Below are positions 26,895-64,000 of a stretch of DNA of 64,000 nucleotides, in pieces. This DNA is from Nitrosopumilus sp. (GTDB lineage Archaea; Thermoproteota; Nitrososphaeria; Nitrososphaerales; Nitrosopumilaceae). Made by a program: the position numbers and the translations under genes. How positions within the stretch are numbered: the stretch's first letter is position 1; each line of letters begins with the position of its first letter. Location: positions 640,001 to 704,000 of the forward strand of contig OZ245040.1 in the NCBI GenBank assembly GCA_965224195.1. The letters run 5' to 3'. The notes below the pieces were generated by a model. The model did not search any database and was not told the origin of the DNA. It saw only the letters and a list, made by a program, of their open reading frames with translations.

Positions 26895-29800
26895 ATGGCT
26901 CCAAAGAGTGTCTTTTTGCTGTTTTTGCTTTTCTCAGTTCTTGCATTGTCTGGCATGTCTCTTGTGTCTGCACAGGCACCATCACCGGGCAGTCCTGTTG
27001 CAGTTACACCTGATAGCACCCCGCCAACCTTCGAGTCAGCAGCACTGGATGAGGGAACCGGAGTTTTGGCAATAACTTTTAATGAGATAATTGCAAACGA
27101 GGGCTTTGACTTGTCTACTGCCGTCTATACAGACAACTCTTTCTCAGTATCTAACAAGGACAACTCTCCAACAGGTATGGCATTCAACACAAATGGAACA
27201 AAGATGTTTGTTGTAGGTTATAATACTGGCAAAATCTACGAGTACGAATTAACTACTCCCTTTGACGTATCCTCCTCCGACTATAAACGCGATTTCTCAG
27301 TATTTTCAGAGGAAAACACTCCAGAAGGCGTGGCATTCAACCCTGCTGGAACAAAGATGTTTGTTGTAGGTGCTGGCAGTGATAAGGTCAATGAGTACAC
27401 ATTAACTACTCCCTTTAACTTATCCACTGCCTCCTATACACGCAATTTCTCAGTATCTTCAGAGGACACGTATCCAGAAGGCGTGGCATTCAACCCGGCT
27501 GGAACAAAGATGTTTGTTGTAGGTTCTAATTATGGTAATGTCTACGAGTACACATTAACTACTCCCTTTAACGTATCTACTGCCGCCTATACAGACAACT
27601 CTTTCTCAGTATCTAACAGAGACACGTCTCCGTCAGGTGTGGCATTTAACCCGGCTGGAACAAAGATGTTTGTTGTAGGTTATGATGGTCACAATGTTAA
27701 CGAGTACACATTAACTGCTCCATTTGACATATCCAATGTCTCCCATACAGGCACTCTCTTAGTACGTTCACAGGACGGGACTCCGGCAGATGTAGCATTC
27801 AACCCTGCTGGAACAAAGATGTTTGTTGTAGGTTATTCTGGCGGGAATATCCACGAGTATGCATTGTCTACTCCAGTTGACCTATCCAAATTATTCATCA
27901 GTGAGTTAGCAAGTGTTAATGGTACCGGCACGGTACTGACTGGTGCCAGCATTGAAACTGTCGGCAACAGCGCCTCCATAGAGATCAAGATGACCGAATC
28001 CCAAAGGCAGTCAGTCATTGCATTGGCTACCCCAGAACTGGACATCATGGCAGCAGCAGTATCTGATGTTTCAGGCAATCAAATAGTTGCAGCACTAGAC
28101 AATATCATTGCAGTAACTAACAGTGTAGCAGCAGTATCACCACCACCACTTGCTGCGCCAACTGGCCTTTCAGTGGCAGTACAGGGCACCACAGCTACCA
28201 TCACCTGGACTGCACCTGCAATATCGGCCAATTCATTCTATGACATTAATTCCGTATCCTATATCGTGAATGTCACTGATACTGCTGCTGGCACCACCGT
28301 ACCGTATACCGTACCTGCTGGCACCACTACCACACATACGGCAACAAACCTGATACCGGGCAAATCTTATGAGGTAACCGTAGAGGCAAAAGCCTTGTTG
28401 TCAGATTCAACCGTTCTGTCCTCCCAACCTACCGCAGCTGTATCCTTTGCTGTGTCTGAACCTCCATCACTTGATGCTCCAACCAACCTTTCAGTGGCTG
28501 TATCTGGCACCACAGCTACTATTACTTGGACTGCACCTACAGTGGATACCAATGACTTCTATACCATTAATAATGTGAGTTATCAAGTGACTGTCCTTGA
28601 TTCTGACGGTTCTGGTGCTGCATCAAGTGGTTCTATAACTGGCACCTCATATACGGCAACAAACCTGACACCGGGTGAGTCATACAATGTATATGTAGTT
28701 GCATATGCTGTCGTTGGATCAAGCTATACTGTGGAATCAGTTGAGGTATCTGCCTCCTTTAATATGCCTGCAGCAGCAGTAGTAGTAGTAGATAGCGGTG
28801 CAGGCACACCGCCATCACCAGATCAGATTAAAGTACAAAATTTAGAGATAGAAAAAACAGGTAACAAAAGAGTTACTTTAACATGGAAAGCACCAGCAAA
28901 TTCAGGTGATAAAGAATTAGATTATTATAGTATCTCATACAATTGTCCTGCTACTCATGGTACAAAATATACTGAGATTCATACTGGCTTTACATCTGTG
29001 TCTATAGATAATTTGGATATAAGCGGCATATGCAGGTTTCAAGTAACTCCAATATATCCTTCTGGTGGTGGTGTTAATAGTCTAATATTTCCTGGTGTTG
29101 ATGGTGGTGTTACTGATAAAGGATTATCAGCTCCTCTAAAAGACATACCATTTACTGAAACACCAAAAGACATACGATTAACTGCTGCAATGAGTGGCAG
29201 TGATGCAATCAAGGTGTCATGGCTTCCAATATCCAGTGATATAGTTTTTTATGAACTGTCTTTGGGTGATGGTGATGACTCACGCGGATTTCAGCCTTTA
29301 AAGGACTTTAAATATGAAGATGATAGGCCAACATCACAAATAATTAAAAACGTTGATCCTGGACGTACATATACTATTTACTTGGTTCTATACAATTATG
29401 AGGGCTCGGTACATTCTACTACTTTTATTAAATATACAGTACCTGTTGACAGCATCCCGCCAAAATTAGAGTCAGCCGCACTGGATGAGGAAACAGGAGT
29501 CCTGACAATAACTTTTGATGAGATAATAGCAAACGAGGGCTTGTCTACTGCCCCCTTTGATTTATCCAAACTGTTCATCAGTGAGTCGGGAAGTGTTAAT
29601 GGTACCGGCACGGCACTGAGCGGTGCCAGCATTGAAACTGTCGGCAACAGCACCTCCATAGAGATCAAGCTGACCGAATCCCAAAGACTGGCAGTCATTG
29701 CATTAACTGTCCCAGAACTGGACATCCTAGAAGCGGCAGTATTTGATGTTTCAGGCAATCAAATAGCTGCGGCACTAGACAATGCCATTGCAGTAACTAA

Positions 29801-32375
29801 CAGTGTACAGCCGCCATCACTTGATGCGCCAACCAACCTTTTAGTCAATGTCATAAACGACACAGCCGCTGAAATTACCTGGACTGCACCTGCAATACCT
29901 GCCAATCCATTCTATGACATTAGTGACGTATCCTATCTCGTGAATGTTACTGATACTGCTGCTGGCACCACCGTACCGTATACCATATCTGACGGCACCA
30001 CTACCACGCATACGGCAACAAACCTGATACCGGGCAAGTCCTATGAGGTAACAGTAAAGGCACTAGTCTTGCTGGGTTCAGGCGATGATTTGGAATCATC
30101 TACCACAGCTGTATCCTTTGATATGCCGACACCTCCGTCACTTGCTGCGCCAACTAACCTTTCAGTCAATGTCATAAACGGCACAGCCGCTGAAATCACC
30201 TGGACTGCACCTGCAATACCTGCCAATCCATTCTATGACATTAGTGACGTATCCTATCTCGTGAATGTCACTGATACTGCTGCTGGCACCACCGTACCGT
30301 ATACCATATCTGACGGCACCACTACCACACATACGGCAACAAACCTGATACCGGGCAAATCTTATGAGGTAACCATAGAGGCAAAAGCCTTGTTGTCAGA
30401 TTCAGCCGTTTTGTCCTCCCAACCTACCGCAGCTGTATCCTTTGCTGTGTCTGAACCACCATCACTTGATGCTCCAACCAACCTTTCAGTGGCTGTATCT
30501 GGCACCACAGCTACTATCACTTGGACTGCACCTACAGTGGATGCCAATGGCTTCTATGCCATTAATGATGTGAGTTATCAAGTGACTGTCGTTGATTCTG
30601 ACGGTTCTGGTGCTGCATCAAGTGGTTCTATAACTGGCACCTCATATACGGCAACAAACCTGACACCGGGTGAGTCATACGATGTATATGTAGTTGCATA
30701 TGCTGCCGTTGGATCAAGCTATACTGTGGAATCAGTTGAGGTATCTGCCTCCTTTGATATGCCTGCAGCAGCAGATGCCCAAGCAGCAGCAGATGCCCAA
30801 GCAGCAGCAGATGCCCAAGCCGCAGCAGATGCCCAAGCCGCAGCAGATGCCCAAGCCGCAGCAGATGCCCAAGCCGCAGCAGATGCCCAAGCCGCAGCAG
30901 ATGCCCAAGCCGCAGCAGATGCCCAAGCCGCAGCAGATGCCCAAGCCGCAGCAGATGCAGCAGCAGATGCCCAAGACATAGCAGATGCTATAGATCCTGC
31001 ACCAGTTGTTGTAACAGTAAATGCTGCAATGTATAACAGCACTGCAATCTTACTGACGTGGACCCAGCCGCCATCATTAGAGGTAACTGGCTATGATTTA
31101 TCATGGGTATCAGAGGATGCTAATGGTTTGCCACATACTTATGGTAGCATATCACTTGACGGTGTAATAGGTGGTACATTAGAATCCCACATATTTAATA
31201 ATGTTAATCCTGGAAAGACATACTACTTTACATTGAGTGTATTTTTCAATGTAGAAGGTTCTCCACAGAGGTTTCACTCTTATGATGTGACATATACAGT
31301 ACCAGATCCTAACGCAGATCCGCCAAAAGATCACAAAAAGAAGAGGAGTACTGGCAGCTCAAATGAGCACTACAAAAAGCCAACCTTTGGACTGTCCCAT
31401 CTGACAGAAAGTCTGATTGTAAATGATGGCATGTGCCTTAATGACAGCTGCGTTGACGTTGTATCATGGCACACAAAATATCCGGAGGATAAAATATTGA
31501 TAGACACCACAAACTATCTGCAGGCCAAAATGTACACTGATAAAACTTTGCGATATGTAGAGTTTTTCTTTGGAGTGCCAAGGCCTGGAGATGCATCTAA
31601 TGCAGAGGTATTCGTAAAGGTAAGCCTGTCTAGAAACTATACCAGTCCAAATAACTATGATGTAGTCAGAATTGATACAACAGATACAGAAGGTTTGCTG
31701 GATGGCACTGTAACTGCTGCAACCATACAGCCAAGCAAATGTCTTAGTGCAGATGTCGAACCAAACTGTCACACTGTAACATTACAGTTTGACTTCAATG
31801 AGGCGCCAATACACAGGGCATTTGCCATAGCGGCAGTTGACATGGACAGACGAGTCCATACAAATTACTTTAATGACGGCTTTGTGGTACTTGGCGAATC
31901 ACTAAATCCAGCAGACATGCACCATGTTGCAAACAGTGGCAAGTATCACTCTAATGAATATGCAAGTACGCACCAGCTGACACTGACCCAGACAGACAGG
32001 GCCAAGAACCTGTGGGCTGACCAGTGGGGATTTGCCTGGACACAAAATGACCATGGTACATGGCTCCAGCTGGAACGAGATGAGTTTGTACGGTACCAGG
32101 ATGACATTAGCAGCGTAATGACCAGAACAAACTCTAACTATGACAGTATGATATCTCATGAGAGGGACCGCGCATTGCAGCATGCAAAGGATATGTATGG
32201 CAGCATATATGACAAACCATCTTCTGATCTGGCAGAGCCTGTAACCATATGGATTGTGCCTTCACCGTCAAGCAAGCTGCAAAACCCGGAGATACTTGAT
32301 GCAATGAAACTGGAGGAAGCAAAGGCAATGAGCTATTTGCAGCATATGGTACGCGCAGATATAAAGCACGATTGA
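26895..32375 (+). CDS. Giant secreted surface protein: beta-propeller repeats (GVAFNPAGTKMFVVG x5), multiple FN3 domains, AAADAQ repeats, thaumarchaeal C-terminal region
   Basis: Signal peptide, five ~50-aa repeats, repeated APTNL...ITWTAP...L.PG..Y.V.V FN3 motifs and near-identical internal DNA duplications. Confidence 0.9.
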   Translation: MAPKSVFLLFLLFSVLALSGMSLVSAQAPSPGSPVAVTPDSTPPTFESAALDEGTGVLAITFNEIIANEGFDLSTAVYTDNSFSVSNKDNSPTGMAFNTNGTKMFVVGYNTGKIYEYELTTPFDVSSSDYKRDFSVFSEENTPEGVAFNPAGTKMFVVGAGSDKVNEYTLTTPFNLSTASYTRNFSVSSEDTYPEGVAFNPAGTKMFVVGSNYGNVYEYTLTTPFNVSTAAYTDNSFSVSNRDTSPSGVAFNPAGTKMFVVGYDGHNVNEYTLTAPFDISNVSHTGTLLVRSQDGTPADVAFNPAGTKMFVVGYSGGNIHEYALSTPVDLSKLFISELASVNGTGTVLTGASIETVGNSASIEIKMTESQRQSVIALATPELDIMAAAVSDVSGNQIVAALDNIIAVTNSVAAVSPPPLAAPTGLSVAVQGTTATITWTAPAISANSFYDINSVSYIVNVTDTAAGTTVPYTVPAGTTTTHTATNLIPGKSYEVTVEAKALLSDSTVLSSQPTAAVSFAVSEPPSLDAPTNLSVAVSGTTATITWTAPTVDTNDFYTINNVSYQVTVLDSDGSGAASSGSITGTSYTATNLTPGESYNVYVVAYAVVGSSYTVESVEVSASFNMPAAAVVVVDSGAGTPPSPDQIKVQNLEIEKTGNKRVTLTWKAPANSGDKELDYYSISYNCPATHGTKYTEIHTGFTSVSIDNLDISGICRFQVTPIYPSGGGVNSLIFPGVDGGVTDKGLSAPLKDIPFTETPKDIRLTAAMSGSDAIKVSWLPISSDIVFYELSLGDGDDSRGFQPLKDFKYEDDRPTSQIIKNVDPGRTYTIYLVLYNYEGSVHSTTFIKYTVPVDSIPPKLESAALDEETGVLTITFDEIIANEGLSTAPFDLSKLFISESGSVNGTGTALSGASIETVGNSTSIEIKLTESQRLAVIALTVPELDILEAAVFDVSGNQIAAALDNAIAVTNSVQPPSLDAPTNLLVNVINDTAAEITWTAPAIPANPFYDISDVSYLVNVTDTAAGTTVPYTISDGTTTTHTATNLIPGKSYEVTVKALVLLGSGDDLESSTTAVSFDMPTPPSLAAPTNLSVNVINGTAAEITWTAPAIPANPFYDISDVSYLVNVTDTAAGTTVPYTISDGTTTTHTATNLIPGKSYEVTIEAKALLSDSAVLSSQPTAAVSFAVSEPPSLDAPTNLSVAVSGTTATITWTAPTVDANGFYAINDVSYQVTVVDSDGSGAASSGSITGTSYTATNLTPGESYDVYVVAYAAVGSSYTVESVEVSASFDMPAAADAQAAADAQAAADAQAAADAQAAADAQAAADAQAAADAQAAADAQAAADAQAAADAQAAADAAADAQDIADAIDPAPVVVTVNAAMYNSTAILLTWTQPPSLEVTGYDLSWVSEDANGLPHTYGSISLDGVIGGTLESHIFNNVNPGKTYYFTLSVFFNVEGSPQRFHSYDVTYTVPDPNADPPKDHKKKRSTGSSNEHYKKPTFGLSHLTESLIVNDGMCLNDSCVDVVSWHTKYPEDKILIDTTNYLQAKMYTDKTLRYVEFFFGVPRPGDASNAEVFVKVSLSRNYTSPNNYDVVRIDTTDTEGLLDGTVTAATIQPSKCLSADVEPNCHTVTLQFDFNEAPIHRAFAIAAVDMDRRVHTNYFNDGFVVLGESLNPADMHHVANSGKYHSNEYASTHQLTLTQTDRAKNLWADQWGFAWTQNDHGTWLQLERDEFVRYQDDISSVMTRTNSNYDSMISHERDRALQHAKDMYGSIYDKPSSDLAEPVTIWIVPSPSSKLQNPEILDAMKLEEAKAMSYLQHMVRADIKHD
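30765..30974 (+). repeat. 18-bp tandem repeat encoding (AAADAQ)n, ~11 units
   Basis: GC(A/C)GCAGCAGATGCCCAA array, in frame. Confidence 0.95.
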
Positions 32376-41579: not shown

Positions 41580-42620
41580 ATAGAGTTCTGATACTAGTCA
41601 ACATCACAGGGTTAATCATTGGAATTTCGTATGGGTTACACGGTCCAATTCTACCAATATTTGCAAAAAATGTCATTGGTGCAACGTATTCCGAACTTGG
41701 TCTAATTGGATTAACCAATTTTATCCCTTACATGTTTATTCCACTTTTTGTAGGGATTCTACTTGATAGAATTAACAACGGATATTTGTTAGCTTTAGGT
41801 GCAGCCATAAATTCTGCATCAATTTATCTGCTATCCATTGCACAATCAGTTCCAGAAATAATGGGGTTTAGAATTATGACAGGTGTAGCTCATGCATTTT
41901 TCTGGCCACCGTGTGAAGCAATTATTTCAAATGAAAGTTCTAAAAAAACAGAGTAAAAAATATCTCATGGTTTACCATGTTTTTTGTAATTGGATTTATG
42001 ATAGGGCCATTACTGGGTACAGCATTACTTGAAGGCCTTGATGTCACATACAGGGTGCTATTCCAAATTGCAGCATTTATTCTCGCTGCTGCAATAATTA
42101 CTTCAGTTGTAGCCTCAAGAAAAAGCGAACAGAGTGACTGCACTGTACCTCAAGTAAAAGGCTGCAATAATTACTTCAGTTGTAGCCTCAAGAAAAAGAG
42201 TAAAAAAACATCACGAGAAATTTTCATTTTCATCAATTAAGAAAATGAAGAGATTTCCAGAAGTGGTAGTGTTGTTGATTTTCTGTACTTCATCGTTTGG
42301 AATAATTCTAACAATTTATCCGGCATTTCTCAATGATAATGGAATGTCTGCATCAGACATTTTGTTATTGTATTTTGTTTTTGGAATTTCGCGTGTTGTA
42401 TCTTTTGCATTAGCAGGAAAATTTGCAAGAAGTACTAGTCAAACTTTGATTGCAGGAACTATTGCAGTATCAGCAGGGCCATAGGGCCAACTATTGGAGA
42501 TCCCATTACACAATCATTTGGAAATGAAACACCGTATGTTGTGTTTTGTATCATAGGAATAAGAGTTACACTATTTGCAATAAGTGCTAGAAAGAAACTA
42601 GAACCACAAAGAATCTCAAA
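41576..42620 (+). pseudogene. MFS transporter, disrupted by a frameshift (~41945), a 73-bp duplication/insertion and an internal deletion (~42480)
   Basis: Consecutive TM-rich fragments, with motif-A-like GILLDRINN. Confidence 0.88.
42088..42198. repeat. Isolated repeat-spacer-repeat unit A (38-bp direct repeat, 35-bp insert)
   Basis: GCTGCAATAATTACTTCAGTTGTAGCCTCAAGAAAAAG at 42088-42125 and 42161-42198. Confidence 0.95.
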
Positions 42621-50121: not shown

Positions 50122-50854
50122 TTTTCTTCTTATCTAATCTTTTTTTAATTGCATATAAGATAATAAAAAATACAATCAAAATTGCACCCAATCCCTCAAT
50201 AATTATAGCAGTAAATGTTCCTAGCATAGTAAAAGTTTCACCAGTCTTAGAGGTAACTGGCTATGATTTATCATGGGTATCAACTGGTAAAGGTTCCTAG
50301 CATAGTAAAAATTTCACCAGTCTGCAAGGATTGTCTATTAAAAATAGAATCATCAATTCGAATATTAGAATTAGATTCTCTAAAATCAAGAGGTTTTGGA
50401 GATTCTGAAACACAAAATCCATTTCTGATCATCATATGTTTTTCACATGAGGTTTTACATTCAAACTAAACATGACAATTGTTGCAACATGATCATCTGA
50501 TTTTTTGGTACTAATTGGATATGGACTTGCATCAAGTAAAATAATTTTGTATGGAGAAAAGAATGTGTATGAATCAGTAGGCATGAAATCAACTGTTTTT
50601 GAATGAATTTGATTTTGAACTTGAATCATAGCAGTTACTTGTCCTCCCCAAACACAAGTAACATCAGAAGGACAACGTGAATCATCTACATCATAAAAAG
50701 TAAATTTAAGATCATCTACATGGATAGTCTGTCCAAGGTGTAATTTGATTTCCTTTTCTGCAAAAGATTCGTTTACCATACTAGTTGAAATTAAAACTGA
50801 AAACACAACTAAAATTATCAAATAATAACTAGTTTTCATTCTATATTTCTCCAT
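50110..50854 (-). pseudogene. Secreted/membrane-anchored protein (DSRCPSDV.CVW.G motif), frameshifted at ~50450 and interrupted by a 76-bp duplication/insertion
   Basis: N-terminal ORF 50432..50854. The downstream frame ...QSLQTGEIFTMLGTF is interrupted and resumes as ...GTFTAIIIEGLGAILIVFFIILYAIKKR. Confidence 0.7.
50211..50322. repeat. Isolated repeat-spacer-repeat unit B (36-bp direct repeat with 2 mismatches, 40-bp insert)
   Basis: Repeats at 50211-50246 and 50287-50322. The first 36 bp of the insert equal 31077-31112. Confidence 0.93.
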
Positions 50855-62920: not shown

Positions 62921-63812
62921 TTTAGGATTTCTGATTCATGGCAAATGTGTCGATATTAGATACAATCACCTTCGCAAGGAAGGGTTTGAGAAGATGTCCT
63001 ATTTACAGAATTGTTTTAAAAAAAAATGGTTGCCCTTTGAATCAGAATTTTTCAAGTTTGGTGGCACTGAAAAAACACATCACTTCAATATCTGTTGATT
63101 CTTTGAGAGATGGTGTGTTGCTGCTTTTTTTGGCAATGTACAGAGAATCTGCTGGCATTTCAACCATTGCTATCCATGCCGTTATCACCAATCTCAGATG
63201 CGGTGCTTGTAATTTTGTTTACAAGATATGCCTGATGGCTCTTTGTTGCAGGAATGACTGCTGCACGTTTAGACTTTTTTTATGAGGGTTTCTGCAAAAA
63301 CAATGTCTTTGTCTTTTGGAGTGTCATTAACAGGACAAGCAACTGCAGACTCATCTTTTGATGGTGCAGGTTTTGAATTGCTAAATAAAATACTGATGCC
63401 TTTAATCGTAAGCCATACGAAATTAGAGTAAGAAATCTTCTCTGGTTTTATTAGTTGGACAATCCTTCTTACAATTTGAACTTGTTTACCATAGTTATGT
63501 TTTGAATTAGTGACTTGTCTGGCGTGATGTCTGCCTCTCTAACCATTGTAAAATGAGCTTAAATCTAGAGTTTAAGGTTTTTTGAAATACTCTGATTGTT
63601 CTCTTTTAGGTACGGCGCTCCCTGCTAGTTCCTCTGGATATCCATTCTCCTTTTTGCGAAAATTATCCCGGATTGTATAGATATCATCCATGGTAATCTC
63701 TGGTTTTGGAGATACAACTATGGTAATTTCTGTATTTTGTCTTGGTATTCCTGGATTTGCATTTGTGCACTGAGGTATGCAGTTTGGCGTTTTTGTACTG
63801 TCATCAGGTGGC

Positions 63813-63920
63813 CTTGATCAATACTAAAAACTATGAATCATCTCAAGTAAGTTTCTCAGCCTCTTCTTTTTCAGAATTCATTTTTCTTGATCAATACTAA
63901 AAACTATGAATCATCTCAAG
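63813..63920. repeat. Isolated repeat-spacer-repeat unit C (35-bp perfect direct repeat, 38-bp insert)
   Basis: CTTGATCAATACTAAAAACTATGAATCATCTCAAG at 63813-63847 and 63886-63920. Confidence 0.95.
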
Positions 63921-64000
63921 AGCAACACCAAAACACATTGCCTACCCCTTCACAATCTTGGCATCGCATATGCTCTGATACGGGCAGAACATGCATGCTT

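Follow-up and report, generated by a model that had tools for sequence, protein, structure and literature searches.

A probable scar of off-target CRISPR spacer integration next to a type I-G array in Nitrosopumilus

We describe Unit C, a 35-nt sequence that stands as two direct copies on either side of a 38-nt insert. The unit is best explained as the scar of an off-target (ectopic) spacer integration by Cas1-Cas2, a reading to which we assign a probability of roughly 0.87. Unit C was found in a 64,000-nt stretch (the window, G000:C1:640001-704000) of a Nitrosopumilus genome. This genome, G000, comprises 2.07 Mb with 33.6% G+C, and archaeal ribosomal protein genes are present in the window. 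Hereafter, X denotes the duplicated sequence and Y the insert, both for Unit C and for its siblings elsewhere in the genome. A first-pass annotation had proposed "another ectopic integration". That proposal is strengthened by a geometry that fits the native arrays, about 37 siblings, eight self-copied inserts, the empty site of one sibling and intact Cas1-Cas2 modules. Coordinates are collected in Table 1.

Table 1. Unit C, sibling units in the window and associated features (window positions unless prefixed by C1)
Feature	Position	Strand	Description or basis
Unit C, X copy 1	63813..63847	.	Perfect direct repeat, 0 mismatches to copy 2
Unit C, insert Y	63848..63885	.	38 nt, spacer-sized, 29% G+C
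Unit C, X copy 2	63886..63920	.	Identical to copy 1
Open frame of 81 codons, a remnant with paralogy to the 3' portion of a broken Csb2-like gene	63575..63817	-	90% identity
UvrD-helicase/PD-(D/E)XK-nuclease gene, 1043 codons, 3' end	63945..64000, start C1:707073 (L001:2-3064)	-	Open frame and Pfam
Sibling unit	42088..42198	.	38-nt perfect duplication, 35-nt insert, period 73
Sibling unit	50211..50323	.	37-nt duplication (2 mismatches), 39-nt insert, period 76
Chromosomal copy of the sequence captured in unit 50211	31078..31112 (C1:671078-671112)	+	35/35 identity
Array A1, type I-G	C1:707205-713740	- (Rfam match strand)	90 identical 36-nt repeats; 89 spacers of 34-42 nt, mode 36-37
Array A2, type I-B			30-nt repeats, period about 66
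Array A3, I-B-like system			132 x 37-nt repeats; spacers of 32-48 nt, mode 35-36

The 35-mer occurs exactly twice in the window, with a start-to-start distance (period) of 73. No match at all was obtained in dinucleotide-preserving shuffles (0/100). The duplication also carries the inverted 5-nt termini, CTTGA and TCAAG, that had been claimed for it. Short perfect repeats are prone to mis-assembly, and a false 73-bp partial duplication introduced by assembly or sequencing was therefore weighed. We consider such an artefact extremely unlikely. Logan unitigs from runs X1 and X2, which belong to one study, cross positions 63818-63915 (copy 1, insert and copy 2) with 0 differences. Their depth over Unit C resembles that of the flanks and both X/Y junctions are crossed. 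Runs X1 and X2 possibly represent the sample behind the assembly. Independent support is hence provided by run X3, from another study, in which a 151-nt contig covers 63761-63911 in the order flank-X-Y-X, again with 0 differences. No joint that skips the insert was reported in the X1, X2 or X3 data. The perfect repeat and its insert, as first annotated, are thus borne out by coordinates, mismatch count, shuffles and reads, and the concern that reads might fail to support the duplication is answered by all three runs.

Two copies of a short sequence around a single insert might also be a minimal orphan CRISPR array, as the first-pass annotation had suggested in second place. Here, two true repeats and one spacer would derive from another system and possibly still produce crRNA. 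The repeat-spacer-repeat layout with CRISPR-like lengths fits this idea, as does a real array 3.2 kb away. The minus-strand end of the repeat, ATTGATCAAG, is also loosely like the native ends ATTGAAGC and ATTGAAAC. However, the 35-mer is confined to the Unit C locus: a search of all 2.07 Mb that tolerated up to 7 substitutions returned no third site, and no multi-unit array contains it. The 35-mer forms no stable hairpin (-3.7 and -1.7 kcal/mol, z about 0), compared with -8.2 kcal/mol and z -2.8 for the A1 native repeat. It matches no Rfam CRISPR-DR family, while the A1 repeats match CRISPR-DR16 on the minus strand at 25-31 bits. Furthermore, 36 siblings each have a different "repeat" made of ordinary host sequence. 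We conclude that an orphan array is highly unlikely. With no hairpin and no Rfam CRISPR match, the duplicated sequence is no CRISPR repeat, and Unit C is therefore most likely inert and a source of no crRNA. Promoter and terminator scans found neither. Matches to C/D-box snoRNA-like Rfam families at Unit C had E above 1 and were taken as chance.

Beyond position 64000, where the first-pass annotation had pointed for cas genes, lie an intact cas4/1-cas2 module and the type I-G array A1. The array begins 3.2 kb past the window end. By its leader is a complete I-G operon: cas7g, csb2, cas3g, a Cas3-extension gene, a csb2-like piece, a cas4/cas1 fusion (715 bits to NF049935) and cas2. In all, G000 has three cas1 genes, none with internal stops. 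Each is beside a CRISPR array and is accompanied by cas2 (PF09827) and by cas4 or a cas4 fusion. In its period, Unit C therefore agrees with A1 and with A3 alike. X is one nucleotide shorter than the A1 repeat and two shorter than that of A3, and the length of Y falls inside the spacer ranges of both. Comparison of the whole A1 array with GenBank phages gave no match. Some stretches are shared between the arrays, 22 nt between A1 and A3 and 19 nt between A2 and A3. Within A2 two spacers are duplicated, and A3 has one near-duplicate spacer pair.

Unit C belongs to a class of dispersed units. We scanned the genome for isolated direct repeats that were perfect over at least 28 nt with periods of 30-300. 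Periods of 69-80 were found for 27/41 and periods of 71-75 for 23/41. A mismatch-tolerant scan gave 54 isolated candidates, of which 37 units were kept after curation. Of the 17 discarded, some were tandem repeats in coding sequence with an "insert" that repeats the unit; others had periods outside 69-80, X below 30 nt, or at least 3 mismatches. X measures 34-39 nt in 31/37 curated units. The remaining six are less clean: two have X of 30-32 nt and four have X of 43-49 nt, one of the latter reaching this size only via a 3-mismatch extension of a 37-nt perfect repeat. All 37 units differ in sequence. The "repeats" consist of ordinary host DNA: in one case the opening codons of a Csb2-like gene, in another a sequence that relatives carry once. 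Only one isolated repeat in G000 is compatible with a 30-nt ruler. Sites with two or more spacers, as in a growing neo-array, were not seen among the dispersed units. Three units fall inside the window, starting at 42088, 50211 and 63813.

The units are unevenly spread. The interval 4-680 kb holds just 1/37 scars where 12 are expected (p 8e-6); 30/37 lie in 680-1750 kb, a stretch that also contains all three arrays. Tolerance of accessory DNA, or nearness to cas loci, could account for this. Reading frames are affected according to period. Units with a period not divisible by three split frames, from 414 aa to 327 + 120 (C1:739057) and from 279 aa to 144 + 162 (C1:1639458). When the window unit at 42088 is excised in silico, two open frames (98 and 108 aa) fuse to a single 155-aa frame. 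Periods of 72, 75 or 78 keep frames open, as in the 331-aa frame at C1:886994. Long frames are likewise intact at the multiple-of-three units C1:778956, 911485, 1619794, 1698884 and 898236. Judged from these frames, multiple-of-three units are possible in-frame insertions of 23-26 residues in expressed proteins.

We infer a common mode of origin for Unit C and its siblings. Briefly, Cas1-Cas2 carrying a 38-bp prespacer would make two staggered strand-transfer attacks on ordinary chromosomal DNA rather than at a leader-repeat junction. The two attack sites would be a repeat-length apart, 35 bp at Unit C compared with 36-37 bp in native arrays. Gap repair would then leave the 35 bp between the attack sites duplicated on either side of the insert.

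Another long-stagger enzyme (a casposase, transposase or other integrase), or two-step replication slippage unrelated to CRISPR, might leave a comparable trace. Cas1-family casposases are common in the genus, with ORFs of about 410-440 aa at about 190 bits in several genomes, and neither a source nor an empty site was found for Unit C itself. We regard this group of explanations as quite unlikely. The three cas1-family genes of G000 all adjoin CRISPR arrays, and no casposase-sized gene of the family is present in the genome. Casposon target duplications are 13-14 bp and surround kilobase elements with terminal inverted repeats, according to PMC8464041; at Unit C, 35 nt surround a 38-nt cargo. 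A plain 73-bp tandem duplication would give 73 nt of identity, not 35. Moreover, the lengths of duplication and insert follow native repeat and spacer lengths across the 37 units.

Integration of spacer-sized DNA predicts that inserts have sources elsewhere. For 8/37 units, the insert matches another chromosomal site over its whole length, with edges at the X/Y junctions. In contrast, 0/287 native spacers match outside the arrays (Fisher p 1.4e-8). Such a difference is expected if a self-targeting spacer kills the cell when it sits in a working array and does no harm in a scar. The insert of unit 50211 was copied from a multi-copy chromosomal element, matching 39/39 with 1 mismatch at C1:809918 and 35/35 at three other sites, one of them in the window (Table 1). 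The 8 self protospacers have no common PAM beside them, whichever orientation is read. Where no self source was found, inserts have 42% G+C, close to native spacers (40-42%) and unlike the genome as a whole. The Unit C insert, with its low G+C content, is unlike native spacers (about 42%). The first-pass annotation had suggested a coding-like fragment and had looked to viral and self sequences for its origin, and none emerged. The best match in its own genome was 23 nt with 2 mismatches, the best among GenBank phages had E 0.5, and no match in 150 other genomes of the genus covered the insert.

Empty sites establish the direction of change for one sibling. At C1:886994, G069, G015 and many other congeners have a single X and no Y. 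The BLAST pieces from congeners overlap by exactly the length of X, and alignment confirms the clean empty site. Insertion polarity is thus proven for this sibling. For Unit C, polarity is taken from the siblings, because neither an empty site nor an insert source was found: the 150 other genus genomes contain no orthologous region, and G009 and G014 align only up to the stop codon of the adjacent helicase gene. At unit C1:739057, relatives diverge exactly at the unit and the comparison is uninformative on an empty site. The best match to the Unit C duplication within the genus, 26/29 nt in an unrelated methyltransferase-like gene, has flanks that do not align and was rated chance. It recurs in several relatives, where the stretch of the gene is conserved (GGCCGT motif), for example on the minus strand near position 1505 of L045 (G096:C41) and L047 (G161:C1). 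The methyltransferase-like copy of G000 itself, C1:828573-828929, differs at the 29-nt stretch, and the match is probably chance.

At the level of the class, unit borders carry an integrase-like sequence preference. An EM search of all 74 unit ends, using both ends and small offsets, returned C-T|G no more than 2 nt from the borders. The log-likelihood was 72.4, compared with 31.0 +/- 5.3 (maximum 43.1) in 60 random-site control sets. Searching for one motif per unit gave an ATTG-C-A-x-C type word at one end (81.4 vs 38.6 +/- 3.7 in 60 controls). This ATTG-type word is similar to the terminal sequences of the A1 and A3 repeats, ATTGAAGC and ATTGAAAC. Since the core of this word is near-palindromic, calls of motif orientation are unreliable. 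A cruder word-count test was not significant (17/37 vs 13.3 +/- 2.9, p 0.14). Compared over the full length with the A1 repeat end, X ends showed a slight excess of matches, with a mean of 5.5 vs 5.0 of 10. The motif also held in a second species: the border matrix trained on G000 scored 1.27 on 16 unit ends of G009, another species of the genus, compared with 0.13 for random sites (p about 0.001).

Unit C itself fits the border motif moderately, and two EM runs leave its orientation unfixed. The first-pass annotation had likened the reverse-strand end of the repeat to ATTGAAAG-type repeat ends. This resemblance agrees with the motif of the class but is weak for Unit C taken alone. On the minus strand, the flank ends in TGCT before the duplication, the same as the A1 leader; the agreement is a hint of four bases only. 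Cas1-Cas2 of P. furiosus integrates off target in vitro at G/C sites one repeat-length apart, and CCCT|GTTA is critical at the junction (PMC6698737). The G000 border motif matches the intrinsic preference of the P. furiosus enzyme described there.

Which integrase made the units can be addressed through relatives. Eleven genomes of the genus carry a cas1 ORF of Cas4/1 size. In G009, cas1 is represented by just two genes, one an I-G fusion and the other of I-B type, with 36-nt-type and 30-nt arrays. In 400 kb of this genome (C1:1760001-2160000, L050-L069) we found 8 clear units with X of 36-39 and periods of 71-74, plus one with X of 29. All are at sites different from those in G000. Units of this kind in a genome whose only cas1 genes are I-G and 30-nt I-B point to the I-G module. 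However, G055 has an I-G system with 132 repeats, yet 400 kb around it contained no unit with X of 34-39; hence, the I-G module alone is not sufficient. In G010, which has no cas1, no unit with X of 34-39 was found in the 400 kb examined. Within G000, the A3 (37-nt) and A1 systems fit the period distribution equally well. For at least 7 perfect units, in which X measures 35-36, a ruler of 36 nt is favoured. We infer that the putative maker of Unit C is probably the I-G Cas4/1-Cas2 module, whose array is 3.2 kb away. The second module, with its 37-nt repeat, would be a less likely candidate.

Events of this kind are already known, and it is their natural scale that is unusual here. Off-target spacer integration, giving "neo-CRISPR" loci, was reportedly described for the E. 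coli type I-E system by Nivala, Shipman and Church in 2018 (Nat Microbiol). The E. coli events depended on Cas1-Cas2 being over-expressed artificially, and the evidence from nature was described as circumstantial (10.1101/148544). The units in G000 share with the E. coli events a spacer-sized insert, a repeat-length duplication of ordinary genomic DNA, the host's own Cas1-Cas2 and self DNA among the inserts. They differ in being natural and fixed, in numbering about 37 per 2.07-Mb genome, in occurring in a second species too and in following 36/37-nt rulers.

The P. furiosus reactions are similar in other respects. According to PMC6698737, opposite-strand sites one repeat-length apart are used and G is preferred at the attacked position, with C-T before it (CCCT|GTTA there, C-T|G here). 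The off-target sites also resemble repeat borders. That work was done in vitro on plasmids with a 30-bp ruler, whereas we describe in vivo scars with a 35-39-bp ruler and a putative enzyme. A study of type I-G adaptation (PMC10504553) concerns the same Cas4/Cas1 fusion as the operon neighbouring Unit C. There, spacer-side integration was less precise than leader-side integration (60-70% vs 80-90% correct), which fits duplication lengths varying from 34 to 39 nt. That study describes PAM-selected, oriented integration at the leader-repeat junction; here, the 8 self protospacers share no PAM.

Two further comparisons are with other Cas1-related loci. Off-target acquisition is one of three proposed origins of orphan arrays (Shmakov et al. 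2020, CRISPR J, as cited in PMC13142298). Unlike the orphan arrays described there, Unit C has a single insert and a "repeat" that is not a CRISPR repeat, which marks it as a scar. The family 1 casposon of Ca. Nitrosopumilus koreensis (PMC8464041) involves a Cas1-family integrase in the same genus and target duplications set by a ruler. However, that element has a 13 bp duplication, kilobase cargo with inverted termini and site-specific insertion, and G000 has no casposase gene.

Literature searched by title and start of abstract contained no natural genome with about 37 such events or scars in Nitrosopumilus. Knowledge of off-target integration comes chiefly from E. coli over-expression and from in vitro reactions. 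Dozens of fixed events in G000 and a sister species make up a natural record of archaeal Cas1-Cas2 misses. The record covers ruler length, border preference, PAM-less self capture, gene disruption and in-frame insertions, and its host group comprises globally abundant marine ammonia oxidisers. To this record Unit C adds one read-supported example, beside the array of the probable culprit. A broader proposal, which we hold tentatively and rate as rather doubtful, is that the CRISPR integrase of this Nitrosopumilus lineage (G000 and G009) is promiscuous. It would keep writing spacer-sized DNA, self included, at C-T|G-type sites one repeat-length apart, and adaptation would be a standing mutagenic force. 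If so, the consequences would be split genes, in-frame insertions of 23-26 residues and raw material for new arrays.

Finally, we considered the surroundings of Unit C, which has the end of a gene on one side and a pseudogene remnant on the other and disrupts no recognisable gene. The first-pass annotation had placed it in decayed accessory DNA. This is a fair description, as the left flank is a broken Csb2-like fragment and nothing corresponding to the region was found in 150 other genomes of the genus. The flank C1:703580-703810 is 90% identical to C1:1228125-1228354, and the homology ends 2 nt before X. The 81-codon remnant frame matches no Pfam family. The copy at C1:1228125-1228354 sits in a 213-aa ORF whose N-terminal 43 residues match the Csb2 encoded in the I-G operon (44% identity, E 1e-8). 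This second, decayed Csb2-like locus (G000:C1:1226625-1229854, L016) adjoins a transposase-like ORF. A 30+39-nt unit lies in the first codons of the decayed gene (C1:1.228 Mb) and duplicates its start.

On the other side, the stop codon of the helicase-nuclease gene is 25 nt from X copy 2. The product is AddA-like, matching PF00580, PF13361 and PF12705 with a weak match to Cas4. Homologues have 82% (G009) and 75% (G014) identity, and the alignment ends at the stop codon. The gene lies between Unit C and the trailer end of A1, and is followed by a degenerate repeat and then the array. In G009, the homologue (C1:2007635-2008694) is a few kb past an I-G-type array that ends at about C1:2004300. 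Judged by its position, the array-adjacent helicase-nuclease could be a candidate accessory of adaptation. Were the integrase promiscuous as proposed above, this conserved UvrD/PD-(D/E)XK protein may feed it self-derived prespacers. Repeats of a different kind also occur in the window. These are coding tandem repeats at 634-885 (12-nt units, about 15 copies), 27140-27906 (five 153-nt units) and 30711-31028 (18-nt units, about 14 copies).
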